From IMG/VR virus record IMGVR_UViG_3300009360_000004: a DNA stretch of 42,338 nucleotides. The stretch is one strand, 5' to 3'. Of the stretch, positions 5,168 to 39,046 are shown in pieces. The notes beneath the pieces were generated by a model, which saw only the letters and a program-made list of their open reading frames with translations, did no database searches and was not told where the DNA came from. The first letter of the stretch is position 1. Each line of letters begins with the position of its first letter. The DNA comes from a virus. Made by a program: the position numbers and the translations under genes.

Positions 5168-6253
5168 TTGAAGGTCGCAGTTTACGCGATCGCAAAGAAC
5201 GAGGCTAAACACGTGCCTCGATGGTATGACTCCATCGCTGAAGCGGATGGAGTTTTTGTTACAGACACCGGTTCGACCGACAACACGGTTGAACTTCTCA
5301 AAGAACGTGGGGTCAATGTCTTTCATGCAGAGATCGAACCGTGGCGATTCGATGTAGCCAGAAACATCTCTCTTGAGAATGTACCTGAAGACTTCGACGT
5401 ATGTTTGTGCATTGATTTAGACGAAGTAATGGAGAAGGGCTGGAGAGAGAAGGTCGAGAGAATCTTTCGGCTTTACCCGCAGGCCACTCTCGTTCGCTGG
5501 CCGTTCGTGTTCAGCTGGTTCGATGAGAAATGCACGAAACCAAAGACTTCAATGTACCAGTGGAAGATTCACGTCAGACACGGTTATCACTGGGAGTCTC
5601 CCATTCACGAAATCTTGGTATGGCATGGGAATGGCGAGACTCTGGAAGTTTATTGCGAAGACATTCACAGCTGGCATTATCAGGATCTCTCGAAACCTAG
5701 AGAGTATCAGAAACTCATCGACAAGGCCGTCTCCGAAGATCCCACAGATCAACGTCTTTCATGGCTTCGTGCGAGAGAACTGATGATGCATAACAGATTT
5801 GAAGAGGCCATCGAAGAGGCCAAGAGGCACCTCGACCTCACCAAAGAGATCAAGGAAGGCGAGAACACGCTCGTTATTGAACAGCTCCGGGCGCTCTCAA
5901 TGCGGTATATCTCGCAGGCTCTCATGCAGAGACACAAGCAAGACAAGACAGTCGATGCGGGAGAAGTCATTGAATGGATGCTGAAGTCTGTGGCCGAGTG
6001 TCCCTGGCTCCGTGAATCGTGGGTGGCTCTCGCTCAAGCGTGGGCGCTCTTCGATCAGTGGGAACAGGTCTATGCGTGTGCGACTTTCGCGCAGACCATC
6101 AAGGCGAGAACGAATTCGATAGAAAACGACGAGCTGGCCTGGGGCGAGTACCCGGAAAAGCTCGCAAGAATAGCGTGGAAGCAGATCAGAAAAGGAGGGA
6201 AAAGATTTGAGCAACAAGCCAAAGACGGACGTTCAAAAAGCAGAAAAGTTTAA
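5168..6253 (+). CDS. Glycosyltransferase family 2-like protein with C-terminal helical (TPR-like) region
   Basis: 361 aa, TTG start after agggagggg RBS. N-terminus KVAVYAIAKNEAKHVPRWYDSIAEADGVFVTDTGSTDNTVELL plus downstream DLDEV (DxD) matches the GT-A fold pattern of GT2 enzymes. Confidence 0.6.
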   Translation: MKVAVYAIAKNEAKHVPRWYDSIAEADGVFVTDTGSTDNTVELLKERGVNVFHAEIEPWRFDVARNISLENVPEDFDVCLCIDLDEVMEKGWREKVERIFRLYPQATLVRWPFVFSWFDEKCTKPKTSMYQWKIHVRHGYHWESPIHEILVWHGNGETLEVYCEDIHSWHYQDLSKPREYQKLIDKAVSEDPTDQRLSWLRARELMMHNRFEEAIEEAKRHLDLTKEIKEGENTLVIEQLRALSMRYISQALMQRHKQDKTVDAGEVIEWMLKSVAECPWLRESWVALAQAWALFDQWEQVYACATFAQTIKARTNSIENDELAWGEYPEKLARIAWKQIRKGGKRFEQQAKDGRSKSRKV

Positions 6254-25966: not shown

Positions 25967-27643
25967 ATGACCGAGTTTCTGCAAGAACTTTGGGGCTTCA
26001 AGCCGGAGAATTTGTTCGTGCTGGTCTGGCAGAAAAGAGGAAAGAAATCGAACTGGTTTCAGGATATAGGAAAGATCGAGAGCTTCGCCCAGAAGAACAG
26101 GGATCTGTCGGACCTGTACATCGGCGTGGGTTTGAGCCCGAAAGACTACGGATCGAAGAACCGCTGCCCCGCGAACGAGGTATCGGGGATCGCTGGATTT
26201 TGGGCCGACATTGACATTCTCGACGAGGTTCACAAGAAGGAGAACCTCCCTGCCTCGCTCGAAGAGGCAAAGAGTCTTTTCCCCGAACCGCCCACGTGCG
26301 TAATCCATTCGGGGCATGGCATACAGGCGTGGTGGTTGTTCAGAGAACCGTGGATCTTCGAGAACGAAGACGAAAGATTCAAGGCTCAGGCGATGTGTCA
26401 AGCCTGGCACCACAGGCTGTTGGAAAGGGCGACCGCCCGGGGCTGGGTGATCGACGCGACATTCGACCTGTCGAGGATTCTGAGAATCCCCGGGACGAAG
26501 AATCTCAAAGATCCGAAAGACGTTCGAGACGTGGAGCTGATCGAGCAAGAATGGACTACGAGGTACGAACCGGAAGATCTGGTCCCCGCGATCGTGGTCG
26601 AGAAGAAGGAAAGAGTCGAGACGGAGATCGGGAGGATCGCACTGCGGCCCGACGCCGCGCCGCCCACGGAGAAGTGGGAGGCCCTGATGAGCGCCGAGCC
26701 GAAATTCAAGAAATCGTGGAACCACGACAGGAAGGATCTCTCAGACCAGTCACCCAGTTCTTACGATTTTAGTCTTGCTTCGATCGCGTTTCAGGCCGAC
26801 TGGACGGACCAGGAGATCGTGGATCTTCTCATCGCCCACAGAAGGAAACACAAGGCAGATCTGAAGTTGCGAAAGGACTACTATCTCAGGACGCTTGAAA
26901 AGTTGAAGCTGGAAAGGAAGTACCAGGAAAAAATCAACGAGGCTCTGGAAACGCACAGCAAAAGAGCCACGGAAATAAAGGTAGCGCTCGCGAACGCCAA
27001 AGTCACATTGATCGAAGCGGAGAACAACGGCGCGAGCCTTGAGCGTGAAGAGATACTCAAAGAGCTGGAAAAGATTCTCGGCGTAAGAATCGAGAAGCTC
27101 CAGAAGTTCCTCTCCGAGCCTCCGTCGTACCGGCTTCAGACTCTGGCCACGAATATCAGCATCGAATCGGCCGGAGACATCATCTCGCAAACGAAATTCA
27201 GAATCAAGATCGCCGACGCTACCGGGGTCGTGATTCGACCGTTCAAGAAGGAAGAATGGTCGGACATAGCACAATTGATCCTAAACGCCTGCGAAGAGAT
27301 CGAGGTCGGTGAGGAGTCCACAGAGGCAGGATTCATAAACAGCCTACTAAGAAAATACCTGCACAGGAACACGAACTTAGTTTCGTTGCAGTCGGTGGAA
27401 GAGTACGGAGAGAAGATCCAGGAAGAGGGCTTTCCCTTTTCCCTAGAGGGCTACACGTACATTTCACTGTCGGAGATGCGAAAATTCATCCGCGTAACCA
27501 GCGGTGACGTACTAACGACCAAGCAGGTGGGTAAGTTGTTGAGAATAGCGGGGTGGAGCAACTGTGTAATCAACGTAAAGGTCGATGAAAAGAAGACTTC
27601 ACGCTCTCTGTTCAAGAAAAAAATCGAGCCTTCTGAAGTTTAA
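25967..27643 (+). CDS. Primase-polymerase (archaeo-eukaryotic primase superfamily) replication protein
   Basis: 558 aa; AEP-type motifs DIDILD (DxD), SGHGIQAWW (sGxGxH), RIPGTKN. Confidence 0.65.
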   Translation: MTEFLQELWGFKPENLFVLVWQKRGKKSNWFQDIGKIESFAQKNRDLSDLYIGVGLSPKDYGSKNRCPANEVSGIAGFWADIDILDEVHKKENLPASLEEAKSLFPEPPTCVIHSGHGIQAWWLFREPWIFENEDERFKAQAMCQAWHHRLLERATARGWVIDATFDLSRILRIPGTKNLKDPKDVRDVELIEQEWTTRYEPEDLVPAIVVEKKERVETEIGRIALRPDAAPPTEKWEALMSAEPKFKKSWNHDRKDLSDQSPSSYDFSLASIAFQADWTDQEIVDLLIAHRRKHKADLKLRKDYYLRTLEKLKLERKYQEKINEALETHSKRATEIKVALANAKVTLIEAENNGASLEREEILKELEKILGVRIEKLQKFLSEPPSYRLQTLATNISIESAGDIISQTKFRIKIADATGVVIRPFKKEEWSDIAQLILNACEEIEVGEESTEAGFINSLLRKYLHRNTNLVSLQSVEEYGEKIQEEGFPFSLEGYTYISLSEMRKFIRVTSGDVLTTKQVGKLLRIAGWSNCVINVKVDEKKTSRSLFKKKIEPSEV

Positions 27644-27756: not shown

Positions 27757-27786
27757 GGAATGGTTAGGAATGGTTAGGAATGGTTA
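27757..27786. repeat. Three perfect tandem 10-bp direct repeats GGAATGGTTA (iteron-like)
   Basis: Read directly at 27757-27766, 27767-27776, 27777-27786 in an AT-rich gap between primase and helicase genes. Confidence 0.7.
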
Positions 27787-27999: not shown

Positions 28000-29688
28000 G
28001 TGGGCCAGGAATACAGAGTTTTCGGTCCTCCCGGGACGGGAAAGACCACGTATCTGAGTCGTCAAATTGAGAAAGCTGCCGGTGAATATAACGGCTCGGT
28101 GATAGTTTCTTCTTTCACAAGAGCCGCTGCCGTGGAGTTGGTTCAAAGAAAACTGCCGGTATCGCGCGAGAGTATCGGGACTCTCCACGCTCTATGTTAT
28201 CGGGCGCTGGGCCGACCGAAAATAGCGGAACTTTTCACGGAGGATTTCAACACGGAGCATCCGGGGTACAAGATCAGCCAGAGAGGGACGGCGATGGAGG
28301 ATATAGAGGCCGCGAAATCGAAGACGCAGGGCGATGAGATTTTCGCACAGATGCAGATCAAGCGCGCGCGAATGATACCGAAAAGCGTCTGGCCCGAGAC
28401 TCTTCTCGACTTCTCGCGAGTGTGGGAGGGCTGGAAAGAAGAAAACGGGTACATGGATTTCACGGACCTGATCGAGGAAGCTATCAGGTCCGTACCTGTG
28501 GCTCCTCAATCTCCCGCGGTAGGTTTCTTCGACGAGGTCCAGGACTTCACGCCCGTACAATTGAAGCTCGTGAGGCAGTGGGTGTCCCACATGGATTTTG
28601 CTATCTTGGCCGGAGACGACGATCAGTGCATATACTCTTTCGCGGGCGCTTCACCCGAGGCGTTCCTTGAACCCGAGCTTCCACAAGAATACGTCAGGGT
28701 GTTGAACCAGTCATGGAGACTCCCCAGAACGATTCAGGAGTACGCGGACTCGTGGATTCGCAAAGTCGCTGTCAGATACCCGAAGCAATACAGGCCCAAA
28801 GATTCCGAAGGTTTCGTGACTTTGTTTGACGCGAAATGGAAGAATCCTGAATTGTATATCCGTGAAATAGAACGGTATATACAGGGGGGTAAGACTGTGA
28901 TGATCCTCGCTACGTGTTCATACATGCTAGACCCTCTGAAGAAGATTCTCAAAGAAGCTGCTATCCCATTTCACAATCCGTACCGCAAGAGTCGAGGAGA
29001 CTGGAACCCATTAGGAAAAAGAAACGGCGTGTCGATGGTCGAGAGGATCATGGCCTTCCTTCTCCCCAGCTTCGAGGCGTGGGGTGAAGAGTCTCGCTGG
29101 TGGAGGCTGGACGACCTAAAGAAATGGATCATGGTTCTCAATTCCGCCGGAGTTCTCCAGCGCGGCGCGAAGAAGGCTTTGCTCGAGAAGCTCGAGACCA
29201 CAGAGGCCGTCGAGAAGAAAGAGGACGATTCCTTCGAGTTCGGCGCGAACATCATAGACGCCGAGTTCGAGTTCGGTGCAAACGAGAAGGAGGATCCCGC
29301 AATCGGCGTGGAGGAAATACTCTCGCAGTTCGAGCCGGAGGCTCGAAGGAGGGCCGAGGCTTCGGACCTGGACTGGTTCTACCACAATCTCTTGCCCGCA
29401 AAGAAGAAAATCGCGCAGTACCCGGTTTCCATCGTCCAGAAACACGGAGCAAGGGCGCTGGTGGAGAAGCCGCGACTAATTGTGGGGACGATTCACAGCG
29501 TGAAGGGCGGCGAGGCGGATATAGTCTATCTCTTCCCCGATCTCTCGCAGGAGGCATACCGCAACGCGATGACTGACAGGAGCAACAGAGACAGTATCAA
29601 ACGCCAGATGTACGTGGGCATGACGCGCGCGAGAGAGGGTCTCTATATCTGTGAGCCCTCGGATATGTGCCACGTGAAGTTTTCATAG
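28000..29688 (+). CDS. Superfamily 1 (UvrD/PcrA-like) DNA helicase
   Basis: 562 aa from GTG 28000 (RBS aaaggaggtga); Walker A GPPGTGKTT, FDEVQD, TIHSVKGGEAD, MYVGMTRAREGLYI. Confidence 0.75.
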   Translation: MGQEYRVFGPPGTGKTTYLSRQIEKAAGEYNGSVIVSSFTRAAAVELVQRKLPVSRESIGTLHALCYRALGRPKIAELFTEDFNTEHPGYKISQRGTAMEDIEAAKSKTQGDEIFAQMQIKRARMIPKSVWPETLLDFSRVWEGWKEENGYMDFTDLIEEAIRSVPVAPQSPAVGFFDEVQDFTPVQLKLVRQWVSHMDFAILAGDDDQCIYSFAGASPEAFLEPELPQEYVRVLNQSWRLPRTIQEYADSWIRKVAVRYPKQYRPKDSEGFVTLFDAKWKNPELYIREIERYIQGGKTVMILATCSYMLDPLKKILKEAAIPFHNPYRKSRGDWNPLGKRNGVSMVERIMAFLLPSFEAWGEESRWWRLDDLKKWIMVLNSAGVLQRGAKKALLEKLETTEAVEKKEDDSFEFGANIIDAEFEFGANEKEDPAIGVEEILSQFEPEARRRAEASDLDWFYHNLLPAKKKIAQYPVSIVQKHGARALVEKPRLIVGTIHSVKGGEADIVYLFPDLSQEAYRNAMTDRSNRDSIKRQMYVGMTRAREGLYICEPSDMCHVKFS

Positions 29689-30266: not shown

Positions 30267-31166
30267 ATGAGAATCGGTCTGATTGATGTTGATTCGAAGA
30301 TCCCTAACCTCGCCCTGATGAAGCTCTCGGCATGGCACAAAGCGAAAGGAGATAAGGTCGGGTTTTTCAATGCGCTTCAGAGATACGATCGTGTCTATGC
30401 CTCGAAAATCTTCGGCTTCACGGATGACTTCAAATACTGGCCTGGCTGCGAGATCGTAAAAGGCGGCAGCGGATATGACCTTGAGGCAAAACTCCCAGAA
30501 GAGATAGAGCATACTTACCCCGACTATGGGCTTTACGGTTGTGATTATGCTATGGGCTTCATCACTAGAGGTTGCATCCGAAACTGTCCTTTCTGCATTG
30601 TGCCGAGAAAAGAAGGCACGATACGCAAATCTGCTGATTTAGAAGAGTTCTGGAATGGGCAAAAGAGATTGATGCTTCTCGATAACAACATAACAGCAGC
30701 TCCAAAAGTGTTTGAAGAGACTATAAACAAAATTGTCGATTTGAAGATCAAAGTTGATTTTAGTCAAGGGTTGGACGCAAGACTCGTTGATGACAAAAAG
30801 TCGCTGCTGCTGTCGAAAGTCAGGTTGTGGAAGCAGATTCGTCTAGCTTGGGACAACGTAAAGGATGAGAGAGAAGTACTTCTAGGTTTGGAGATCCTTC
30901 TCAAATACAATTCCCCGAAACGCCTGATGATCTACGTCCTCATAGGCTTCGATTCCACGCCCGAGGAAGATCTCTATCGAGTAGAAAGGCTTCGAGAGAT
31001 GAAACTCGACTCTTTCGCTATGCCTTTCGACAGAAGAGATCCATACCAGAGGAACTTTGCGAGGTGGGTCAATCATAAGGCGATATTCAAGAGTGTTTCG
31101 TGGAATGAATACACTGCCAATAGAAAGAAGAGGAAAAGAAATCCGAGACAACTGGAGGTGAACTGA
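30267..31166 (+). CDS. Radical SAM protein with B12-binding-like N-terminal segment
   Basis: 299 aa, RBS gaggaggg; canonical C-x3-C-x2-C (CIRNCPFC) in GFITRGCIRNCPFCIV; N-terminus MRIGLIDVD...NLALMKLSAWHKAKGDKV resembles a Rossmann-like B12-binding segment. Confidence 0.65.
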   Translation: MRIGLIDVDSKIPNLALMKLSAWHKAKGDKVGFFNALQRYDRVYASKIFGFTDDFKYWPGCEIVKGGSGYDLEAKLPEEIEHTYPDYGLYGCDYAMGFITRGCIRNCPFCIVPRKEGTIRKSADLEEFWNGQKRLMLLDNNITAAPKVFEETINKIVDLKIKVDFSQGLDARLVDDKKSLLLSKVRLWKQIRLAWDNVKDEREVLLGLEILLKYNSPKRLMIYVLIGFDSTPEEDLYRVERLREMKLDSFAMPFDRRDPYQRNFARWVNHKAIFKSVSWNEYTANRKKRKRNPRQLEVN

Positions 31167-33271: not shown

Positions 33272-33486
33272 TGGGAATCTGGATATTTCTACTGGCTTCA
33301 GGGTGTTTTTGCGCGGGGTACTGCCTTTCCGGGATGCTCGGTTACGGCACCCGTGAAGATCTTGAGCGCGAGGCTGAAGAGTTGAGACGAGAGAACGCCC
33401 GACTGATGCGGAGTAATCTCACGCTTCAGGAAGAGATCGAACTGATGGAGAAAGAGACGAGATTCAGAGAGAAAACGAAGGTATGA
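33271..33486 (+). CDS. Small membrane/coiled-coil protein
   Basis: 71 aa; N-terminal hydrophobic helix (IWIFLLASGCFCAGYCLSGMLGYG) then coiled coil. Confidence 0.4.
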   Translation: MGIWIFLLASGCFCAGYCLSGMLGYGTREDLEREAEELRRENARLMRSNLTLQEEIELMEKETRFREKTKV

Positions 33487-33527
33487 GGGCCGCGGGGACG
33501 GCCCTTGCACCATTCAGGAGTGGGGCT

Positions 33528-33959
33528 ATGAATGATTCGTTGTGGGATATCGTTTTTCGAGTCGTGGAGGGTCGAATGCTGGCCCCGAAACAGGTCCATA
33601 AACTCTGGGCCTCACGCGAGACGATCGAGCGACACACCGAAAGTATGATCTTTTCCACCTCGTCCATAATATACCTCCAGAAGGACCGCATTGAACCAAA
33701 CGAGAAGATCACGAAAGACGCCTCAGCGGTCCGGGTGTTGGAAATCATGGACGGAGCGATGGAGTCTCTCGCGGATGAAGATCGCCGGGCATGGGGGTGG
33801 AGGTACTCCGAGGGGATGACACTTGAAGAGGTAGGCCAGATGATCGCCGATGCGCCGAGAGGGTGTGACAACGCAGGGAGGTTCTGGAGAGTGAAGGCGT
33901 TGCGAAAACTCGATCATATTGCGTTGATACTGGCCAGGAAGATGTGGAGAGGAGCATAA
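33528..33959 (+). CDS. Sigma-70 region-4-like HTH protein (putative late-gene regulator or small-terminase-like)
   Basis: ATG 33528 after caggagtgggg RBS; MTLEEVGQMIADA...RFWRVKALRKL resembles sigma-70 region 4. Confidence 0.45.
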   Translation: MNDSLWDIVFRVVEGRMLAPKQVHKLWASRETIERHTESMIFSTSSIIYLQKDRIEPNEKITKDASAVRVLEIMDGAMESLADEDRRAWGWRYSEGMTLEEVGQMIADAPRGCDNAGRFWRVKALRKLDHIALILARKMWRGA

Positions 33960-34032
33960 TTTCACCCACGCCACAGCCACTTGCTATTTTTGAAACAAGT
34001 GTGCTAAAATATGTTAGTGCTAAAAAACTGAG

Positions 34033-34066
34033 AAGGCCCGAGAGGGCCCGAGAGGGCCTTTTTTCA
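34033..34066 (+). terminator. Rho-independent terminator with tandemly duplicated hairpin
   Basis: ggcccgagagggcccgagagggcc followed by tttttt. Confidence 0.55.
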
Positions 34067-34131
34067 TGTAAACTCACACGGCTTTAATCCCGTGAAATAA
34101 GGCTCAGTAACTTACTAGAGGGAGGGTGCGA

Positions 34132-34518
34132 ATGAAAGTAACTATCGAGCAAGTTGCAGCAATTTGTCACGAAGTAAACAGGGCTTATGTTAATGCAACG
34201 GAGGGTAAAGACGTTCAACCGTGGCACTTAGCGCCACAGTGGCAAAAAGATTCCGCGATTGATGGCGTTAGGTATGCGTCTGAACATCCCGATAACACAC
34301 CAGAGAAAATGCACGATCGCTGGATGAAATATAGGCTGGCTAATGGTTGGGTTTATGGGGAGACTAAAGACGATGAAAAAAAGACCCATCCGTGTTTAGT
34401 TCCTTACTACGAGCTATCGGAGGCACAAAAGGCGAAAGACTATCTCTTTGATGCCGTTGTGAAAGCAGCTATGAATTATCTGAATTGCGACTTCTGCCCA
34501 CCAGCAGGTCGTCTATAA
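34132..34518 (+). CDS. RyR (ryanodine-receptor) domain protein
   Basis: ATG 34132 after agagggaggg RBS; HDRWMKYRLANGWVYGETKDDEKKTHPCLVPYYELSEAQKAKDY matches the RyR-domain signature (W...GW.YG...D..K.HP.LVP...L.E..K..D). Confidence 0.6.
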   Translation: MKVTIEQVAAICHEVNRAYVNATEGKDVQPWHLAPQWQKDSAIDGVRYASEHPDNTPEKMHDRWMKYRLANGWVYGETKDDEKKTHPCLVPYYELSEAQKAKDYLFDAVVKAAMNYLNCDFCPPAGRL

Positions 34519-34580
34519 TCACTACTGCTGGTTTGGTAAAGCCGAACAGGTTTATTCCACGGAAATAAAGTTATAAGGCT

Positions 34581-34652
34581 AGGCACGTAGCGCAATGGCA
34601 GCGCATCCGTCTCATAAACGGAAGGGTAGCGGTTCGAATCCGTTCGTGCCAC
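34581..34652 (+). tRNA. tRNA with CAU anticodon (tRNA-Met or lysidine-modified tRNA-Ile2 type)
   Basis: Hand-folded cloverleaf: 6 bp acceptor stem plus A1-A72 mismatch, D arm gcgc/aatggca/gcgc, anticodon arm tccgt-ctCATaa-acgga, variable loop agggt, T arm agcgg-ttcgaat-ccgtt. Confidence 0.6.
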
Positions 34653-34784
34653 GGCCTTTATTTGTGTTACCCACGTGGTGCGGCTGTGTTGGGGGGGTGC
34701 CCCACTCATGGTCGCAGCTGCTTGGAGCATATACTTTGCCAGATACGGCCAAGCACGTAGAAAAGCTGGCAGAACGCAGTGTTC

Positions 34785-34809
34785 GGGGAGCCTTCGGGCT
34801 CCCTTTTTA
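34785..34809 (+). terminator. Rho-independent terminator
   Basis: gggagcc-ttcg-ggctccc hairpin followed by ttttt. Confidence 0.55.
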
Positions 34810-34821
34810 TTGGAGGTCATT

Positions 34822-34998
34822 TTGAGTCAGGCCATACAATGCGACGAATGTGGAAAGACTGCACATATGACCCATCACTGGCACAAGCTCGACGGGCTGG
34901 ACTTCTGCTCGTGGAAGTGTGTGCGAAGGTTTGCGAATCGAAGGATCAAACAGGATCGGGAGTATCAGAGAGAGAAAGAAGGGATTGAATGCAGATAG
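34822..34998 (+). CDS. Small zinc-binding protein
   Basis: 58 aa from TTG 34822, 5 nt after tggaggt RBS; CDECGK ... CSWKC. Confidence 0.4.
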   Translation: MSQAIQCDECGKTAHMTHHWHKLDGLDFCSWKCVRRFANRRIKQDREYQREKEGIECR

Positions 34999-36155
34999 AA
35001 AAGAAGAAAGTCTCCGACTTAAAGTGTGCTCCATACAACCCGCGAAAGATTGACGACAAAGAGCTTGCAAAACTAAAACGAAGCATCACCGAGTTTGGTT
35101 ATGTAGAACCTATTGTCTGGAATAAACGCTCGGGCTTCGTTGTGGGAGGTAATCAGAGACTCAAGGCATTACGTGAGCTTGAAATAGAGGAAGCCGATGT
35201 CGTGGTTGTTGACCTTGACGACGCAAAGGAGAAAGCTCTCAATGTCGCCTTGAATAAAATCTCTGGCGAGTGGGACTTCATCAAGCTAAAGGACGTATTG
35301 ACTGACATTGACACAGGAGACTTTGACATAGAGCTGACTGGGTTTGATTTGGATGAGATAGGAGAATTGATAGCTTTCGACAAAGAACCTGAAGAAGATG
35401 GTTTCGACGTAGACGCTGCATTAGAAAACACAGAAGAACCCGTGACAAAACGCGGTGACATTTACCTGCTTGGAAAACATCGCCTGATGTGCGGGGACTC
35501 AACTATCAAAGAAGATGTCGAGAAGCTGATGGATGGTAAGAAAGCGGATATGGTGTTCACTGACCCGCCTTATGGGGTGAATTACGATGGCGGCACTAAA
35601 CTACGAAACAAATTAGCGGGCGATGATACCACCGATTTGTACGAGCCTTGCTGCAAAATGGCACGCGATTTCTCGACGAACGAAGCGGCTTTGTATCTTT
35701 GGCACGCAGGGGTGAAAGGGATAGCAGCCGCAGCCGCAGCCGCAGATTGGGTCATTCGTTGTGAGATAGTTTGGAATAAAAACCATGCACAATTCGGCGC
35801 GTTGTCGGCACAGTACAAACAAAAGCACGAGCCTTGTTATTATTGCTACAAAAAAGGAAAGACGGTAAATTGGTGTGGGCCGAAAAACGAAGTAACGGTG
35901 TGGGACGTTGACAGAGCGTTGGTGAATGAATACCATCCCACACAGAAGCCGGTGGAGTTGGCAAAACGCGCTATTCAAAACCACAAAGCGGATTTGGTAC
36001 TCGACTTATTCGGCGGCTCAGGCTCAACACTCATAGCTTGTGAACAGCTCAACCGCATCTGCTACATGATAGAAATTGACGAGCGATACTGCGATGTAAT
36101 CGTAAAGCGTTGGGAAGAATTCACAGGCAAGAAAGCTCAATTGATGAGGAAGTGA
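34989..36155 (+). CDS. ParB-like nuclease domain fused to DNA N6-adenine/N4-cytosine methyltransferase
   Basis: 388 aa; C-terminal motif IV FTDPPYG precedes motif I LDLFGGSGST; N-terminal ~120 aa is ParB/Srx-like. Confidence 0.7.
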   Translation: MQIEKKKVSDLKCAPYNPRKIDDKELAKLKRSITEFGYVEPIVWNKRSGFVVGGNQRLKALRELEIEEADVVVVDLDDAKEKALNVALNKISGEWDFIKLKDVLTDIDTGDFDIELTGFDLDEIGELIAFDKEPEEDGFDVDAALENTEEPVTKRGDIYLLGKHRLMCGDSTIKEDVEKLMDGKKADMVFTDPPYGVNYDGGTKLRNKLAGDDTTDLYEPCCKMARDFSTNEAALYLWHAGVKGIAAAAAAADWVIRCEIVWNKNHAQFGALSAQYKQKHEPCYYCYKKGKTVNWCGPKNEVTVWDVDRALVNEYHPTQKPVELAKRAIQNHKADLVLDLFGGSGSTLIACEQLNRICYMIEIDERYCDVIVKRWEEFTGKKAQLMRK

Positions 36156-36159
36156 TTTT

Positions 36160-36486
36160 ATGGCTGGCAGACCGAAAAAGAAAATAGACTATGAGCTTGT
36201 CGAGAAGCTGGCCTATATTCAGTGTACACAAGAAGAAATCAGCTCGATTCTTGGCATATCGACAAGGACTCTTCAGAGAGACAAAGAATTTTGTCGCATA
36301 TATAAAAACGGAATGGACAACGGGAAGATGTCTCTAAGGCGGTTACAGTGGAAGGCCGCAGAAAAAGGCAATAACACAATGCTAGTTTGGCTCGGTAAAC
36401 AGTACCTCGGCCAGACAGACAAGCAAGAGATGGCTCACTCTGGCAGCCTCGACATCACTGTGGACGTGGTTGAAGATGGCGATTAA
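36160..36486 (+). CDS. terS: Terminase small subunit
   Basis: 108 aa; MAGRPKKKIDYELVEKLAYIQCTQEEISSILGISTRTLQRD is a typical HTH-type small terminase N-terminus; directly upstream of the large subunit. Confidence 0.65.
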   Translation: MAGRPKKKIDYELVEKLAYIQCTQEEISSILGISTRTLQRDKEFCRIYKNGMDNGKMSLRRLQWKAAEKGNNTMLVWLGKQYLGQTDKQEMAHSGSLDITVDVVEDGD

Positions 36487-37684
36487 AATTCACACCCGCA
36501 TATTCAACAAGGCTTTCAAACCGTATCTCGACAACCGCTCGCGCTACGAGATCTTCTACGGTGGCGCAGGTTCGGGCAAGTCGATGTTTATCGCCCAGAG
36601 ACTCGTCCTTCGTGCAATGAAGGAGAAAGGTCACAAGTTTCTCATAGTCAGGAAGGTCGCAAAGACGAACCGGCATTCGACGTTCGCGCTTATCATGGGG
36701 ATTCTCAGGGTATGGAAGGTTCTCGGACTTTTCAAAGTCAACAAGTCCGACATGGAGATCGGCTGTCTGAATGGCAATCAAGTCATCTTCACCGGTCTTG
36801 ACGACGTGGAAAAGCTCAAGTCGATCGCGGGTATCACGGACATCTGGGTCGAAGAAGCGAGCGAGATCACGCAGGAAGACTTCCAGCAGCTTGACTTGCG
36901 ACTCAGGGGCAAGACTCAATGGCCGCTGCAAATCACAATGACATTCAATCCGGTGTCGGCTTTGAGCTGGTTGAAGGCTTTCTTCTTCGATGAACCGAAA
37001 GAGAACTGTGTCATCCACAAATCGACGTACAAAGACAATCGTTTCCTGGACGACGAATATAAGAAAGTCATAGAAGACTTGAAAAATCAGGATCACACGT
37101 ACTATCAGATATACGGACTCGGTGAATGGGGTGTTCTCGGAAACCTCGTCTTCCACAACTACGTGTTCGAAGACATTCCCTACAAAGAGCAAGACTTTGA
37201 CGCTGTTTATCAGGGCCTCGACTTTGGCTTCAATCATCCCTCGGCTCTCGTTCGTGTGGGATTCAAAGACGATGAACTCTACGTCTTCGACGAGCTGTAC
37301 GAGAAAGGGCTCACGAACGCGGAACTCATTCAGGAAGTCGGCAGGATGATCGACAAGCGTTCGCAGCTCATAGCGGACTCAGCCGAACCCGCGAGAATCA
37401 AAGAGTTTCAGCAGTCTGGTTTCAGAATCAGCGGTTCGGTCAAGGGCAAAGGTTCTGTGAAAGATGGTATCGACTGGCTCAAGAGACACAAGATCCACAT
37501 CTCGAAGAAGTGCCCAAACCTGCTTGCTGAGATTCAGCAATACAGCTACAAAGAAGACAAAGACGGCAATGTCTTGGATGAACCGATCGAATTCAAAGAC
37601 GACGCGATCGCGGCACTTAGATATGCGATCGAACCTGTGAGACTGAGACGCAAAATCACAGCCGGATACTCGGCGTGGAGGTAA
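36476..37684 (+). CDS. terL: Terminase large subunit (PBSX/Terminase_3-like)
   Basis: ATG 36476 (track ORF starts TTG 36470); Walker A YGGAGSGKS; acidic C-terminal nuclease-type region; followed by portal gene. Confidence 0.8.
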   Translation: MAIKIHTRIFNKAFKPYLDNRSRYEIFYGGAGSGKSMFIAQRLVLRAMKEKGHKFLIVRKVAKTNRHSTFALIMGILRVWKVLGLFKVNKSDMEIGCLNGNQVIFTGLDDVEKLKSIAGITDIWVEEASEITQEDFQQLDLRLRGKTQWPLQITMTFNPVSALSWLKAFFFDEPKENCVIHKSTYKDNRFLDDEYKKVIEDLKNQDHTYYQIYGLGEWGVLGNLVFHNYVFEDIPYKEQDFDAVYQGLDFGFNHPSALVRVGFKDDELYVFDELYEKGLTNAELIQEVGRMIDKRSQLIADSAEPARIKEFQQSGFRISGSVKGKGSVKDGIDWLKRHKIHISKKCPNLLAEIQQYSYKEDKDGNVLDEPIEFKDDAIAALRYAIEPVRLRRKITAGYSAWR

Positions 37685-37687
37685 ATC

Positions 37688-39046
37688 ATGGACCTTAACA
37701 CAATTCGCGAACTCATACGAATCAACGGTGAAGTAACTTCACAGATAATCACGGATCTCATAGATGAACACAGCGGCAGACATGAGACGATGAAGAGCCT
37801 GTATGAGAGATACAAAGCGTCCGAGGCCGGTGTCCCTATCTTCACGCGCTCATATTCGGTCGCGGACGACACGAAGATAAACAGAAAGCTGAACAACGAC
37901 TTCTTCTCGGAGATCATCGACACGAAGGTCGGGTACTTCATGGGGATCCCGACAGTGTACGAAGCGAACTCGAAAGACTTCGAGGACTTCGAGTTGAGAA
38001 ACCGGCTGGAACTTCTCGACTCGGAAACCGTGAAGCTGGCCACGATCTGTGGCACGGCCGCGAGACTTCTGTATGTCGATACCGAGGCGAAGATCCGCGC
38101 TATGAACACCTGGCCCTGGGAATGCATCTGGGTGATGGACCGCTCGATCGACGAGGTCCAGTTCGCTCTCAGATACTACGATATGGAGTATGTCAAACCT
38201 GACGGCTCGACAGAAACAAGGGAACGGGTCGAGTGGTATGACAAAGAGAAGGTAACATACTACACCAAGACCGAGAATGGCTACGTCCTGGACGACACGG
38301 AAAAACTTAATCCGCAGACTCACTTCTTCAGTTATGTTCCTCTGATCGAGTACCCAAACAACCTTGAACGTCTGGGTGACTCTGAGAAGGTTCTCAGTCT
38401 CATAGACGCTTACGACCGTAAAGAGTCAGACCTCGACTCCGAGCTTGAGCAATGGAGGCTGGCGTACATGAAGGCGATAGGTGCCGACATCACGAGGGAA
38501 GTTGTGGAGGTTGCGAAGCGCACGGGGGCTTTCAATCTCCCCGAAGGCGCGGATCTTGCCTTTATCGAGAAAAATATAAATGTTGCTGCGATAGACTCAC
38601 ATCTGAACAGACTTGAAGCCAACATTCTCAGATTCTCCAAGTCTGTCAACTTCGCCGACAAAGAATTCACCAGCGACATCTCGGGCGAGTCGAGAAAGTA
38701 CAAGCTCCTGTCGCTTGAGAACAAGTGCATCACGACAGAGCGACAGTTCTCGGCGAGCAATCAGAGAATGTTCAAGGTCCTGGCCTCGGCTCCGGCGTTC
38801 AACTTCGACTGGCTGAATGTCACGCAGAGGTTCACTCGAAACCTTCCCGTCAGTCTGGAGAAAGACGCTCAGATCCTCGCCGCGCTCAAGGGCATCGTGC
38901 CGGATGAGATTCTATACTCCCTCGCTTCGTTCATCGACGATCCGAAAGAGGTCATCAAAATGATGGACGAGCAGAGAGAGAAAGAAATGAGCTACTACCC
39001 GCCGGTAAACCTCGAAGAGGATGAGGAAGATGGCGCTAACAACTAA
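37688..39046 (+). CDS. Portal protein (SPP1 gp6-like)
   Basis: 452 aa, RBS ggaggt; size and position between terminase and head-morphogenesis genes. Confidence 0.7.
   Translation: MDLNTIRELIRINGEVTSQIITDLIDEHSGRHETMKSLYERYKASEAGVPIFTRSYSVADDTKINRKLNNDFFSEIIDTKVGYFMGIPTVYEANSKDFEDFELRNRLELLDSETVKLATICGTAARLLYVDTEAKIRAMNTWPWECIWVMDRSIDEVQFALRYYDMEYVKPDGSTETRERVEWYDKEKVTYYTKTENGYVLDDTEKLNPQTHFFSYVPLIEYPNNLERLGDSEKVLSLIDAYDRKESDLDSELEQWRLAYMKAIGADITREVVEVAKRTGAFNLPEGADLAFIEKNINVAAIDSHLNRLEANILRFSKSVNFADKEFTSDISGESRKYKLLSLENKCITTERQFSASNQRMFKVLASAPAFNFDWLNVTQRFTRNLPVSLEKDAQILAALKGIVPDEILYSLASFIDDPKEVIKMMDEQREKEMSYYPPVNLEEDEEDGANN

Follow-up and report, generated by a model that had tools for sequence, protein, structure and literature searches.

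In-frame hexanucleotide repeat variation in a predicted core helix of a phage ParB-domain DNA methyltransferase family

The variation of DNA methyltransferases by means of repeats is prominent among the themes of bacterial epigenetics, and the known cases proceed either through frameshifts that turn Type I and Type III systems of bacteria ON or OFF or through recombination of specificity genes. One class of methyltransferase found in phages is joined to a ParB-like domain: a 2025 survey of the ParB-CTPase fold, in which this fold was treated as a nucleoside triphosphate (NTP)-binding switch, found its fusion with N6_N4 methyltransferase domains to be enriched in phages and prophages and suggested anti-defence roles for it (PMC12704722); the survey mentions no internal repeat in these fusions. 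The catalytic parts of such proteins belong to the beta class, for which dimerisation has been reviewed as essential for activity (PMC7544214). Here we describe a fusion of this kind encoded at positions 34989-36155, on the plus strand, of the IMG/VR virus record IMGVR_UViG_3300009360_000004, the whole 42,338 nucleotides of which are referred to below as the window. Its methyltransferase domain contains an in-frame (GCAGCC) repeat, the copy number of which differs between closely related phages.

As the original prediction had reported, a (GCAGCC) array of 3.7 copies encoding an alanine run is situated at positions 35724-35745 of the plus strand, and Tandem Repeats Finder described it with a period of 6, 100% matches and the consensus GCAGCC. 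Written out, the array is (GCAGCC)3GCA, and it encodes A246-A252, which form the body of a predicted helix, alphaE, in the protein context ...VKG-I-AAAAAAA-DWVIRCEIVWNK. No other perfect repeat in the window has a period of 4-12 and reaches 3.5 copies, and none of this kind arose when the window was simulated 300 times under an order-1 Markov model; thus, the repeat is real and not a chance occurrence. An open reading frame (ORF) on the opposite strand at 35582-35818 was rejected as a gene, since it simply reads the complement of the GCAGCC repeat.

Comparison of the window protein with its relatives, all of which come from metagenomic contigs, revealed that the tract is recurrent and variable in length. 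A poly-alanine tract occupied the same position in 17 among the top 120 homologues, with 4 units plus GCA in a relative of 96% amino acid identity to the window protein (L001) and 5 units plus GCA in one of 83% identity (L002). Wider sampling, carried out by scanning the back-translated flank motif WHAG[VI]KGIAA in viral, metagenome and genome collections, yielded 46 distinct contexts, which encode 5, 7, 9, 11, 13 or 15 alanines, while rare tracts of 8 and 12 alanines are accounted for by flank substitutions. A back-translated CEIVWNKN pattern, corresponding to the strand after the tract, added one extra locus only (L066), which is unrelated. Every allele is in frame, and the frame is uninterrupted in all loci that have both gene ends on the contig. 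The expectation that hexamer copy-number changes would preserve the frame was therefore borne out by alleles of 5-15 alanines in steps of two, and the comparison of copy number among related genomes, which had been suggested as a check, was positive, near-identical phages differing by one unit.

Copy number differed in four of the six pairs with 100% identical flanks and in all seven pairs at 95-100% flank identity. In three pairs of contigs a one-unit difference in the repeat was the sole indel, namely in L013 and L014, which are 99.56% identical over 6.1 kb, in L034 and L043, which are 99.4% identical over 1.3 kb, and in L011 and L033, which are 98.5% identical over 5.5 kb. The lineage of the window itself, recognisable by the sequence DWVIRCEI, includes alleles of 7, 9, 13 and 15 alanines at 95-98% flank identity, and all three other members of the 90% cluster of the window protein have 9 alanines. 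Since one repeat unit is the only indel between phages that are 98.5-99.6% identical, we conclude with high confidence that the tract is a hypermutable in-frame hexanucleotide microsatellite, which is kept perfect across a protein subfamily and varies the length of alphaE.

Perfect alternation of two codons was found in 42 of the 47 distinct tracts, which use six codon pairs depending on the lineage (GCA/GCC, GCC/GCA, GCC/GCT, GCG/GCA, GCG/GCT and GCT/GCC), and elsewhere in the DNA of these phages, of which 934 kb were covered, there were only 4 alanine runs of five or more residues, none of them alternating. On a neighbour-joining tree the loci formed about 30 deep lineages over which the codon pairs are scattered, and the flanks shared less than 75% nucleotide identity in most pairs of lineages. 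Homogenisation of the array is presumably driven by slippage. Every stage in the life of a microsatellite is represented, decayed arrays included: at one locus (L147) the array is broken by a single C>T change that turns an alanine into valine, and at another (L149) the tract is degenerate. A second subclade, with the pattern ADAH-A(n)-GY.ITAQIIW.K, carries (GCTGCC)n or (GCAGCC)n in the same helix, and a third, sister subclade (L071 and L092) has in this helix a perfect 12-nucleotide repeat encoding (AAVT)2.5, which the two loci write with different synonymous codons, as if another unit were undergoing concerted evolution at this site. Two simple causes of the observed pattern were rejected. 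A preference for helical phase does not account for the lengths, as the classes of 5, 9 and 13 and of 7, 11 and 15 alanines are both populated, and alternation between tRNAs does not account for the two-codon pattern in view of the GCG/GCA pair, since GCG and GCA codons would use one tRNA.

We then placed the tract in the methyltransferase fold. The AlphaFold2 model of the window protein, built from a 59-sequence alignment (predicted local distance difference test, pLDDT, 82.9), has a strand beta5 at residues 229-238, a helix at 245-251 and a strand beta6 at 254-265. In the model of an 11-alanine relative (P0002) the equivalent helix spans residues 250-262, that is, 13 residues, and the helix is therefore predicted to lengthen with the tract. 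A Foldseek search against the PDB returned M1.HpyAVI (5hfj) as the best match, with an E-value of 2e-13, a probability of 1.0 and a target-normalised template modelling score of 0.77, followed in order by 8urk, 6pbd, 8s9o, 2zif, 1eg2, 1g60 and 1boo, so that the top structural matches were M1.HpyAVI, M.BceJIV and CcrM; profile E-values were 2e-26 for M1.HpyAVI, 1e-16 for CcrM and 1e-21 for M.BceJIV. In phmmer and profile alignments, the tract corresponded to residues 92-98 (ADFLEEN) of M1.HpyAVI, to HNIFRVGVAVQDLGF of CcrM and to the equivalent helix of M.BceJIV, and the alphaE region aligned with those of the solved beta-class enzymes without gaps around a conserved W.K strand. From these models and alignments, we assign the tract to helix alphaE, between beta5 and beta6 of the methyltransferase fold.

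In the solved enzymes this neighbourhood contributes to the dimer. The M1.HpyAVI dimer is held by R86, D93 and E96 (PMC5173035), and the second and fifth alanines of the tract are the aligned counterparts of D93 and E96. In CcrM, the target base T4 is hydrogen-bonded in trans by I110 of the partner subunit, and D113 and H134 form a pair within the dimer interface (PMC6787082); by alignment, the equivalents of I110 and D113 in the window protein are I256 and E259, which lie just past the tract. We infer by homology that the tract probably lies at or beside the dimer interface.

The tract thus changes by whole units of two alanines each, as slipped-strand mispairing would produce, its length turns over faster than any other indel arises in the surrounding kilobases, and the array is continually re-homogenised, the two-codon repeat staying perfect throughout a subfamily while the codon pair drifts. 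These observations led us to propose how the repeat may act. With alphaE at or beside the interface of an obligate dimer, alleles of 5-15 alanines would probably pack differently as dimers and therefore vary in methylation activity. The repeat would then serve as a graded tuning knob and not as a phasevarion-type ON/OFF frameshift switch, and a phage population would gain standing variation in the level of DNA methylation before packaging. Taken as a whole, this chain, in which a variable alphaE gives graded tuning of dimer-dependent methylation activity, is a tentative proposal to which we give slightly less than an even chance. Several points weigh against it. A poly-alanine helix is the type of element most likely to tolerate length changes neutrally, and the modal length of 9-11 alanines fits stabilising selection together with mutational noise, 9 being the usual length of the helix in non-repeat members. 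An exact-identity look-up, which is blind to variants, returned the identical 388-amino acid protein for 23 contigs of many samples, and in the 6 of these that were examined the gene had no nucleotide change; with 3.5 units the array is short, and the window allele may thus be fairly stable. Finally, the placement at the interface derives from homology at 20-27% identity and from monomer models.

A near-neutral hypermutable tract, in which a helix of alanines on the protein surface tolerates a gain or loss of 2-6 residues with no meaningful change in the enzyme and slippage outpaces point mutation, is the main rival of this proposal, although we hold it to be less likely than not. It would explain why lengths cluster at 9-11 alanines, with 9 alanines making the segment enclosed by the conserved G and IR 13 residues long, as it also is in non-repeat family members, why interrupted or decayed tracts stand in apparently intact genes, and why the DWVIRCEI lineage passes through its four lengths with no compensating change in the flanks. 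However, short hexamer arrays of 2.5-7.5 units usually decay, yet here perfect arrays have lasted through about 30 deep lineages while the codon pair turned over, a sister subclade independently has a 12-nucleotide repeat in the same helix, and in alignments this helix coincides with an interface that is critical to function. A further reading, a selected contingency locus, strikes us as rather unlikely. Second-order selection would in that case keep the repeat pure, and the repeat would work as an in-frame 'rheostat' that resets the dimer interface and so changes the amount or the sequence that is methylated before packaging. If this were true, the phage population could hedge between two kinds of host, those with classical restriction-modification and those in which restriction depends on methylation, and it would be the first case of methyltransferase phase variation by protein length and not by frameshift, and the first in viruses.

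Improbable, in our judgement, is a switch of specificity, in which the length of alphaE would reset the geometry of the subunits so that the dimer reads or methylates another sequence or spacing. Precedent exists in EcoR124I and EcoR124II, where an in-frame helical repeat changes specificity (PMC7383803); moreover, the residue of CcrM that contacts the target base in trans, I110, is equivalent to I256, and beta-class dimers split DNA recognition and catalysis between their subunits (PMC7544214). Against this, alphaE does not separate two recognition domains but forms part of the catalytic fold itself, and since each step of two residues turns the helix by about 200 degrees, a regular change of spacing is not expected. 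That the copy-number differences are artefacts of assembly or sequencing, or that the repeat acts at the level of DNA or RNA, for instance as a pac site or a regulatory element, is very improbable. The relatives are metagenomic contigs only, in which tandem repeats can be mis-assembled, and the tract lies about 430 nucleotides upstream of the small-terminase gene. However, the tracts are at most 45 nucleotides long, which is shorter than typical short reads and below the k=141 used for some of the contigs according to their names; the window allele recurs in JGI, ENA and Logan data, the 15-alanine allele in L013, L048 and L055 and the 11-alanine allele in L011, L015, L057 and L058, and frame and parity are kept in every length change. 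In addition, lineages differ in the sequence of the unit but not in the alanines that it encodes, which speaks against a DNA site recognised by its sequence. The original prediction had viewed the tract as a linker inside the methyltransferase domain, and a homopolymeric alanine run of variable length would indeed suit a flexible linker that modulates the enzyme by its length. This part of it did not hold and is almost certainly wrong: both AlphaFold2 models have a helix here between two core strands, the tract aligns with alphaE of three solved enzymes, and the segment that does resemble a linker is elsewhere, at residues ~97-150 (35277-35438, plus strand), an acidic interdomain stretch with short helices and the lowest confidence in the model (pLDDT 60-70).

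The gene runs from ATG to TGA and encodes 388 amino acids with a ParB_N domain and a beta-class N6_N4 DNA methyltransferase domain, both of them matched above the curated cut-offs of Pfam, in accordance with the original description of this ORF. The ParB N-terminal domain (ParB/Srx, CTPase fold; PF02195) covers residues 2-83, encoded at 34992-35237, with 32.6 bits against a cut-off of 26.3, and the catalytic domain (PF01555) covers residues 187-372, encoded at 35547-36104, with 93.8 bits against 26.7 and a match to positions 2-220 of the 221 of the profile. The order of motifs is the circularly permuted one of the beta class, also as described before, since motif IV, D192PPY195 (35562-35573), stands N-terminal to motif I, F341GGSGST347 (36009-36029); all these features are on the plus strand. 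Among 59 homologues, D192, P193, P194, Y195, F341, G343, S344, G345 and T347 are invariant. The DPPY motif, together with the nearest solved relatives, suggests that the window enzyme is an N6-adenine methyltransferase. An NCBIfam search gave sub-threshold methyltransferase and ParB matches only, with no curated equivalog or known specificity.

The ParB domain retains the GxxR motif: in the homologue alignment, the Box II-like motif G53-G-N-Q-R57 (35145-35159, plus strand) has G53, G54 and R57 nearly invariant among the 59 homologues, which makes NTP binding by this domain plausible, and the ParB_N profile of the window protein matches Spo0J, Noc and ParB chains. The term 'ParB-like nuclease' is a fold name alone, the fold being of the ParB N-terminal NTP-binding type. 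A partition ParB was rejected, because the 388-amino acid protein has no Pfam match to a helix-turn-helix (HTH) or a C-terminal dimerisation domain; its neighbours are a zinc-ribbon ORF and terminase genes, with no parA partner.

The window enzyme is second in a tight packaging operon that consists of the zinc-ribbon ORF, the methyltransferase, the small terminase, the large terminase and the portal gene. The operon begins downstream of a terminator-like hairpin at 34785-34804 on the plus strand (GGGGAGCC-TTCG-GGCTCCC followed by a T run), which closes the preceding unit with a tRNA-Met (CAT) at 34581-34652 (62 bits in Rfam). The first ORF (34822-34998, plus strand), of 58 amino acids, is CxxC...CxxxC zinc-ribbon-like, has a TTG start and a GGAGG ribosome-binding site and shows weak Pfam matches of the treble-clef/TRASH-like kind. 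Its stop and the methyltransferase start overlap by 10 nucleotides, which suggests translational coupling, and by tblastn it is kept upstream of the methyltransferase in close relatives with 56-100% identity. Only 4 nucleotides past the methyltransferase stop codon begins a gene for a small-terminase-like HTH protein of 108 amino acids (36160-36486, plus strand; PHROG 309, E 3.8e-8), and it is followed by the large terminase subunit (36470-37684, plus strand), identified by domain and PHROG matches, and an SPP1-type portal gene (37688-39046). Since no restriction enzyme gene adjoins it, the methyltransferase is an orphan enzyme in a packaging operon. A Pfam scan found terminase domains in 4 of 8 ORFs downstream of the methyltransferase genes of relatives, and a rule that the gene is always next to terminase is only partly shown. 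In one relative (L147, with the gene P0014 at 1501-2646), the protein has no recognisable ParB_N Pfam match, the (GCAGCC) array is interrupted, and a GTP cyclohydrolase I gene is located between methyltransferase and terminase, which hints at a DNA modification module of the 7-deazaguanine type.

The window corresponds in full to the metagenomic contig Ga0118671_1000282 (JGI 3300009121). An exact direct overlap of 136 bp joins the two ends of the contig (window 1-136 and 42203-42338), so the window is circular and probably represents a complete siphovirus-like genome of about 42.2 kb with 50% G+C. It encodes tape-measure, tail, structural, portal and terminase proteins, helicases and a primase/polymerase. 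Megablast of positions 34000-38000 gave no match among GenBank phages, and there is therefore no close cultured relative among them. Elsewhere in the genome, a perfect 10-mer (GGAATGGTTA) is repeated three times at 27757-27786, in an AT-rich gap of 356 nucleotides that separates a helicase gene (28000-29688) from a primase/polymerase-like gene (25967-27643); the array resembles iterons and is a candidate replication origin. At 34030-34058, after the ORF 33483-33959, 'GAGAGGGCCC' in 2.9 copies forms two GC-rich hairpins that overlap each other and precede a T run, which looks like a terminator with a duplicated arm. The genome also encodes a RyR-domain protein of 130 amino acids (34126-34518; Pfam 1.8e-14), which is missing from an otherwise near-identical contig (L005), a radical SAM domain protein (30267-31166; PHROG 9298, 4.5e-95) and a beta-1,4-glycosyltransferase-like protein (5168-6253; PHROG 13126, 2.8e-80).

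Set against the family to which it belongs, the window protein is ordinary in all but its helix. It matches PHROG 498 ('DNA methyltransferase') co-linearly over residues 1-385 with an E-value of 7.8e-141, at least 8000 homologues are present in the protein database at E<=1e-20, and matches that cover at least 80% of the protein occur with 40-49% identity in 302 GenBank phage records, the hosts of which include Bacillus, Clostridium, Streptococcus and Lachnospiraceae. The ParB_N-methyltransferase fusion is thus a common and published phage-enriched architecture, and the earlier view that phages use this fusion agrees, as regards the phage context, with PHROG 498 and with the packaging operon. 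The PHROG 498 fusions have the same two domains, retain GxxR, occur in a phage context and often stand beside terminase genes, as the window protein does, which is a member of this family with no difference in architecture. However, alphaE is an ordinary helix, such as EGLNFRKAFKDAGF, in most members, whereas the window member has a poly-alanine repeat. Similarly, M1.HpyAVI (5HEK/5HFJ), CcrM (6PBD) and M.BceJIV (8URK) share the fold and the motif order of the window enzyme at 20-27% identity, but they lack a ParB domain, the C-terminal DNA-binding domain of CcrM has no counterpart in the window enzyme, and alphaE in these solved enzymes is of mixed sequence and fixed length whereas here it is a variable run of alanines.

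What is new here is therefore not the gene, which is routine, but a phage orphan family with an in-frame repeat that varies a catalytic-core helix at a presumed dimer interface. If its length matters, epigenetic variation would have a new mode, a graded one, the conflict of phages with restriction systems would gain a new layer, and the alleles of 5-15 alanines would offer a natural allelic series for probing beta-class dimers. A neutral repeat would still be an unusually clean case of a coding microsatellite that renews itself and has been kept across deep divergence, as well as a ready-made strain marker for these phages. In the literature covered, which left out most subscription journals and is thus weak evidence of novelty, we found no description of in-frame, hexanucleotide or polyalanine repeats in methyltransferases or of contingency repeats in phages, and one phasevarion paper leaves repeats 'divisible by three' for future analysis.

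Among the closest described systems, two likewise vary a methyltransferase by means of a simple sequence repeat. In phasevarions (Type III mod, Type I hsdM/hsdS), a slippage-variable simple sequence repeat lies inside a methyltransferase ORF, as it does in the window gene; however, phasevarion repeats shift the frame and switch the enzyme ON or OFF, whereas the unit of 6 nucleotides described here stays in frame and alters the length of the protein and not its expression. Also unlike these systems, the window enzyme is an orphan phage methyltransferase. A phasevarion-type enzyme was consequently rejected, since copy-number polymorphism is present but frameshift ON/OFF switching is not. The TAEL repeats of HsdS resemble the tract in that an in-frame repeat encodes a helix and differs in copy number between natural variants, an extra TAEL repeat distinguishing EcoR124I from EcoR124II, and copy-number change can alter specificity (PMC7383803); the likeness extends to the sister subclade, in which the unit, (AAVT), has 4 residues. 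The HsdS helix, however, is a coiled-coil spacer between two target-recognition domains, while the helix to which the repeat is assigned here belongs to the core of a catalytic Rossmann-like fold, in a Type II-like and presumably homodimeric enzyme. An HsdS-type spacer repeat was therefore also rejected, because alphaE, inside the catalytic fold, does not lie between paired recognition domains. Compared with both systems, the variable alphaE looks like an undescribed way to vary a methyltransferase without switching it off.

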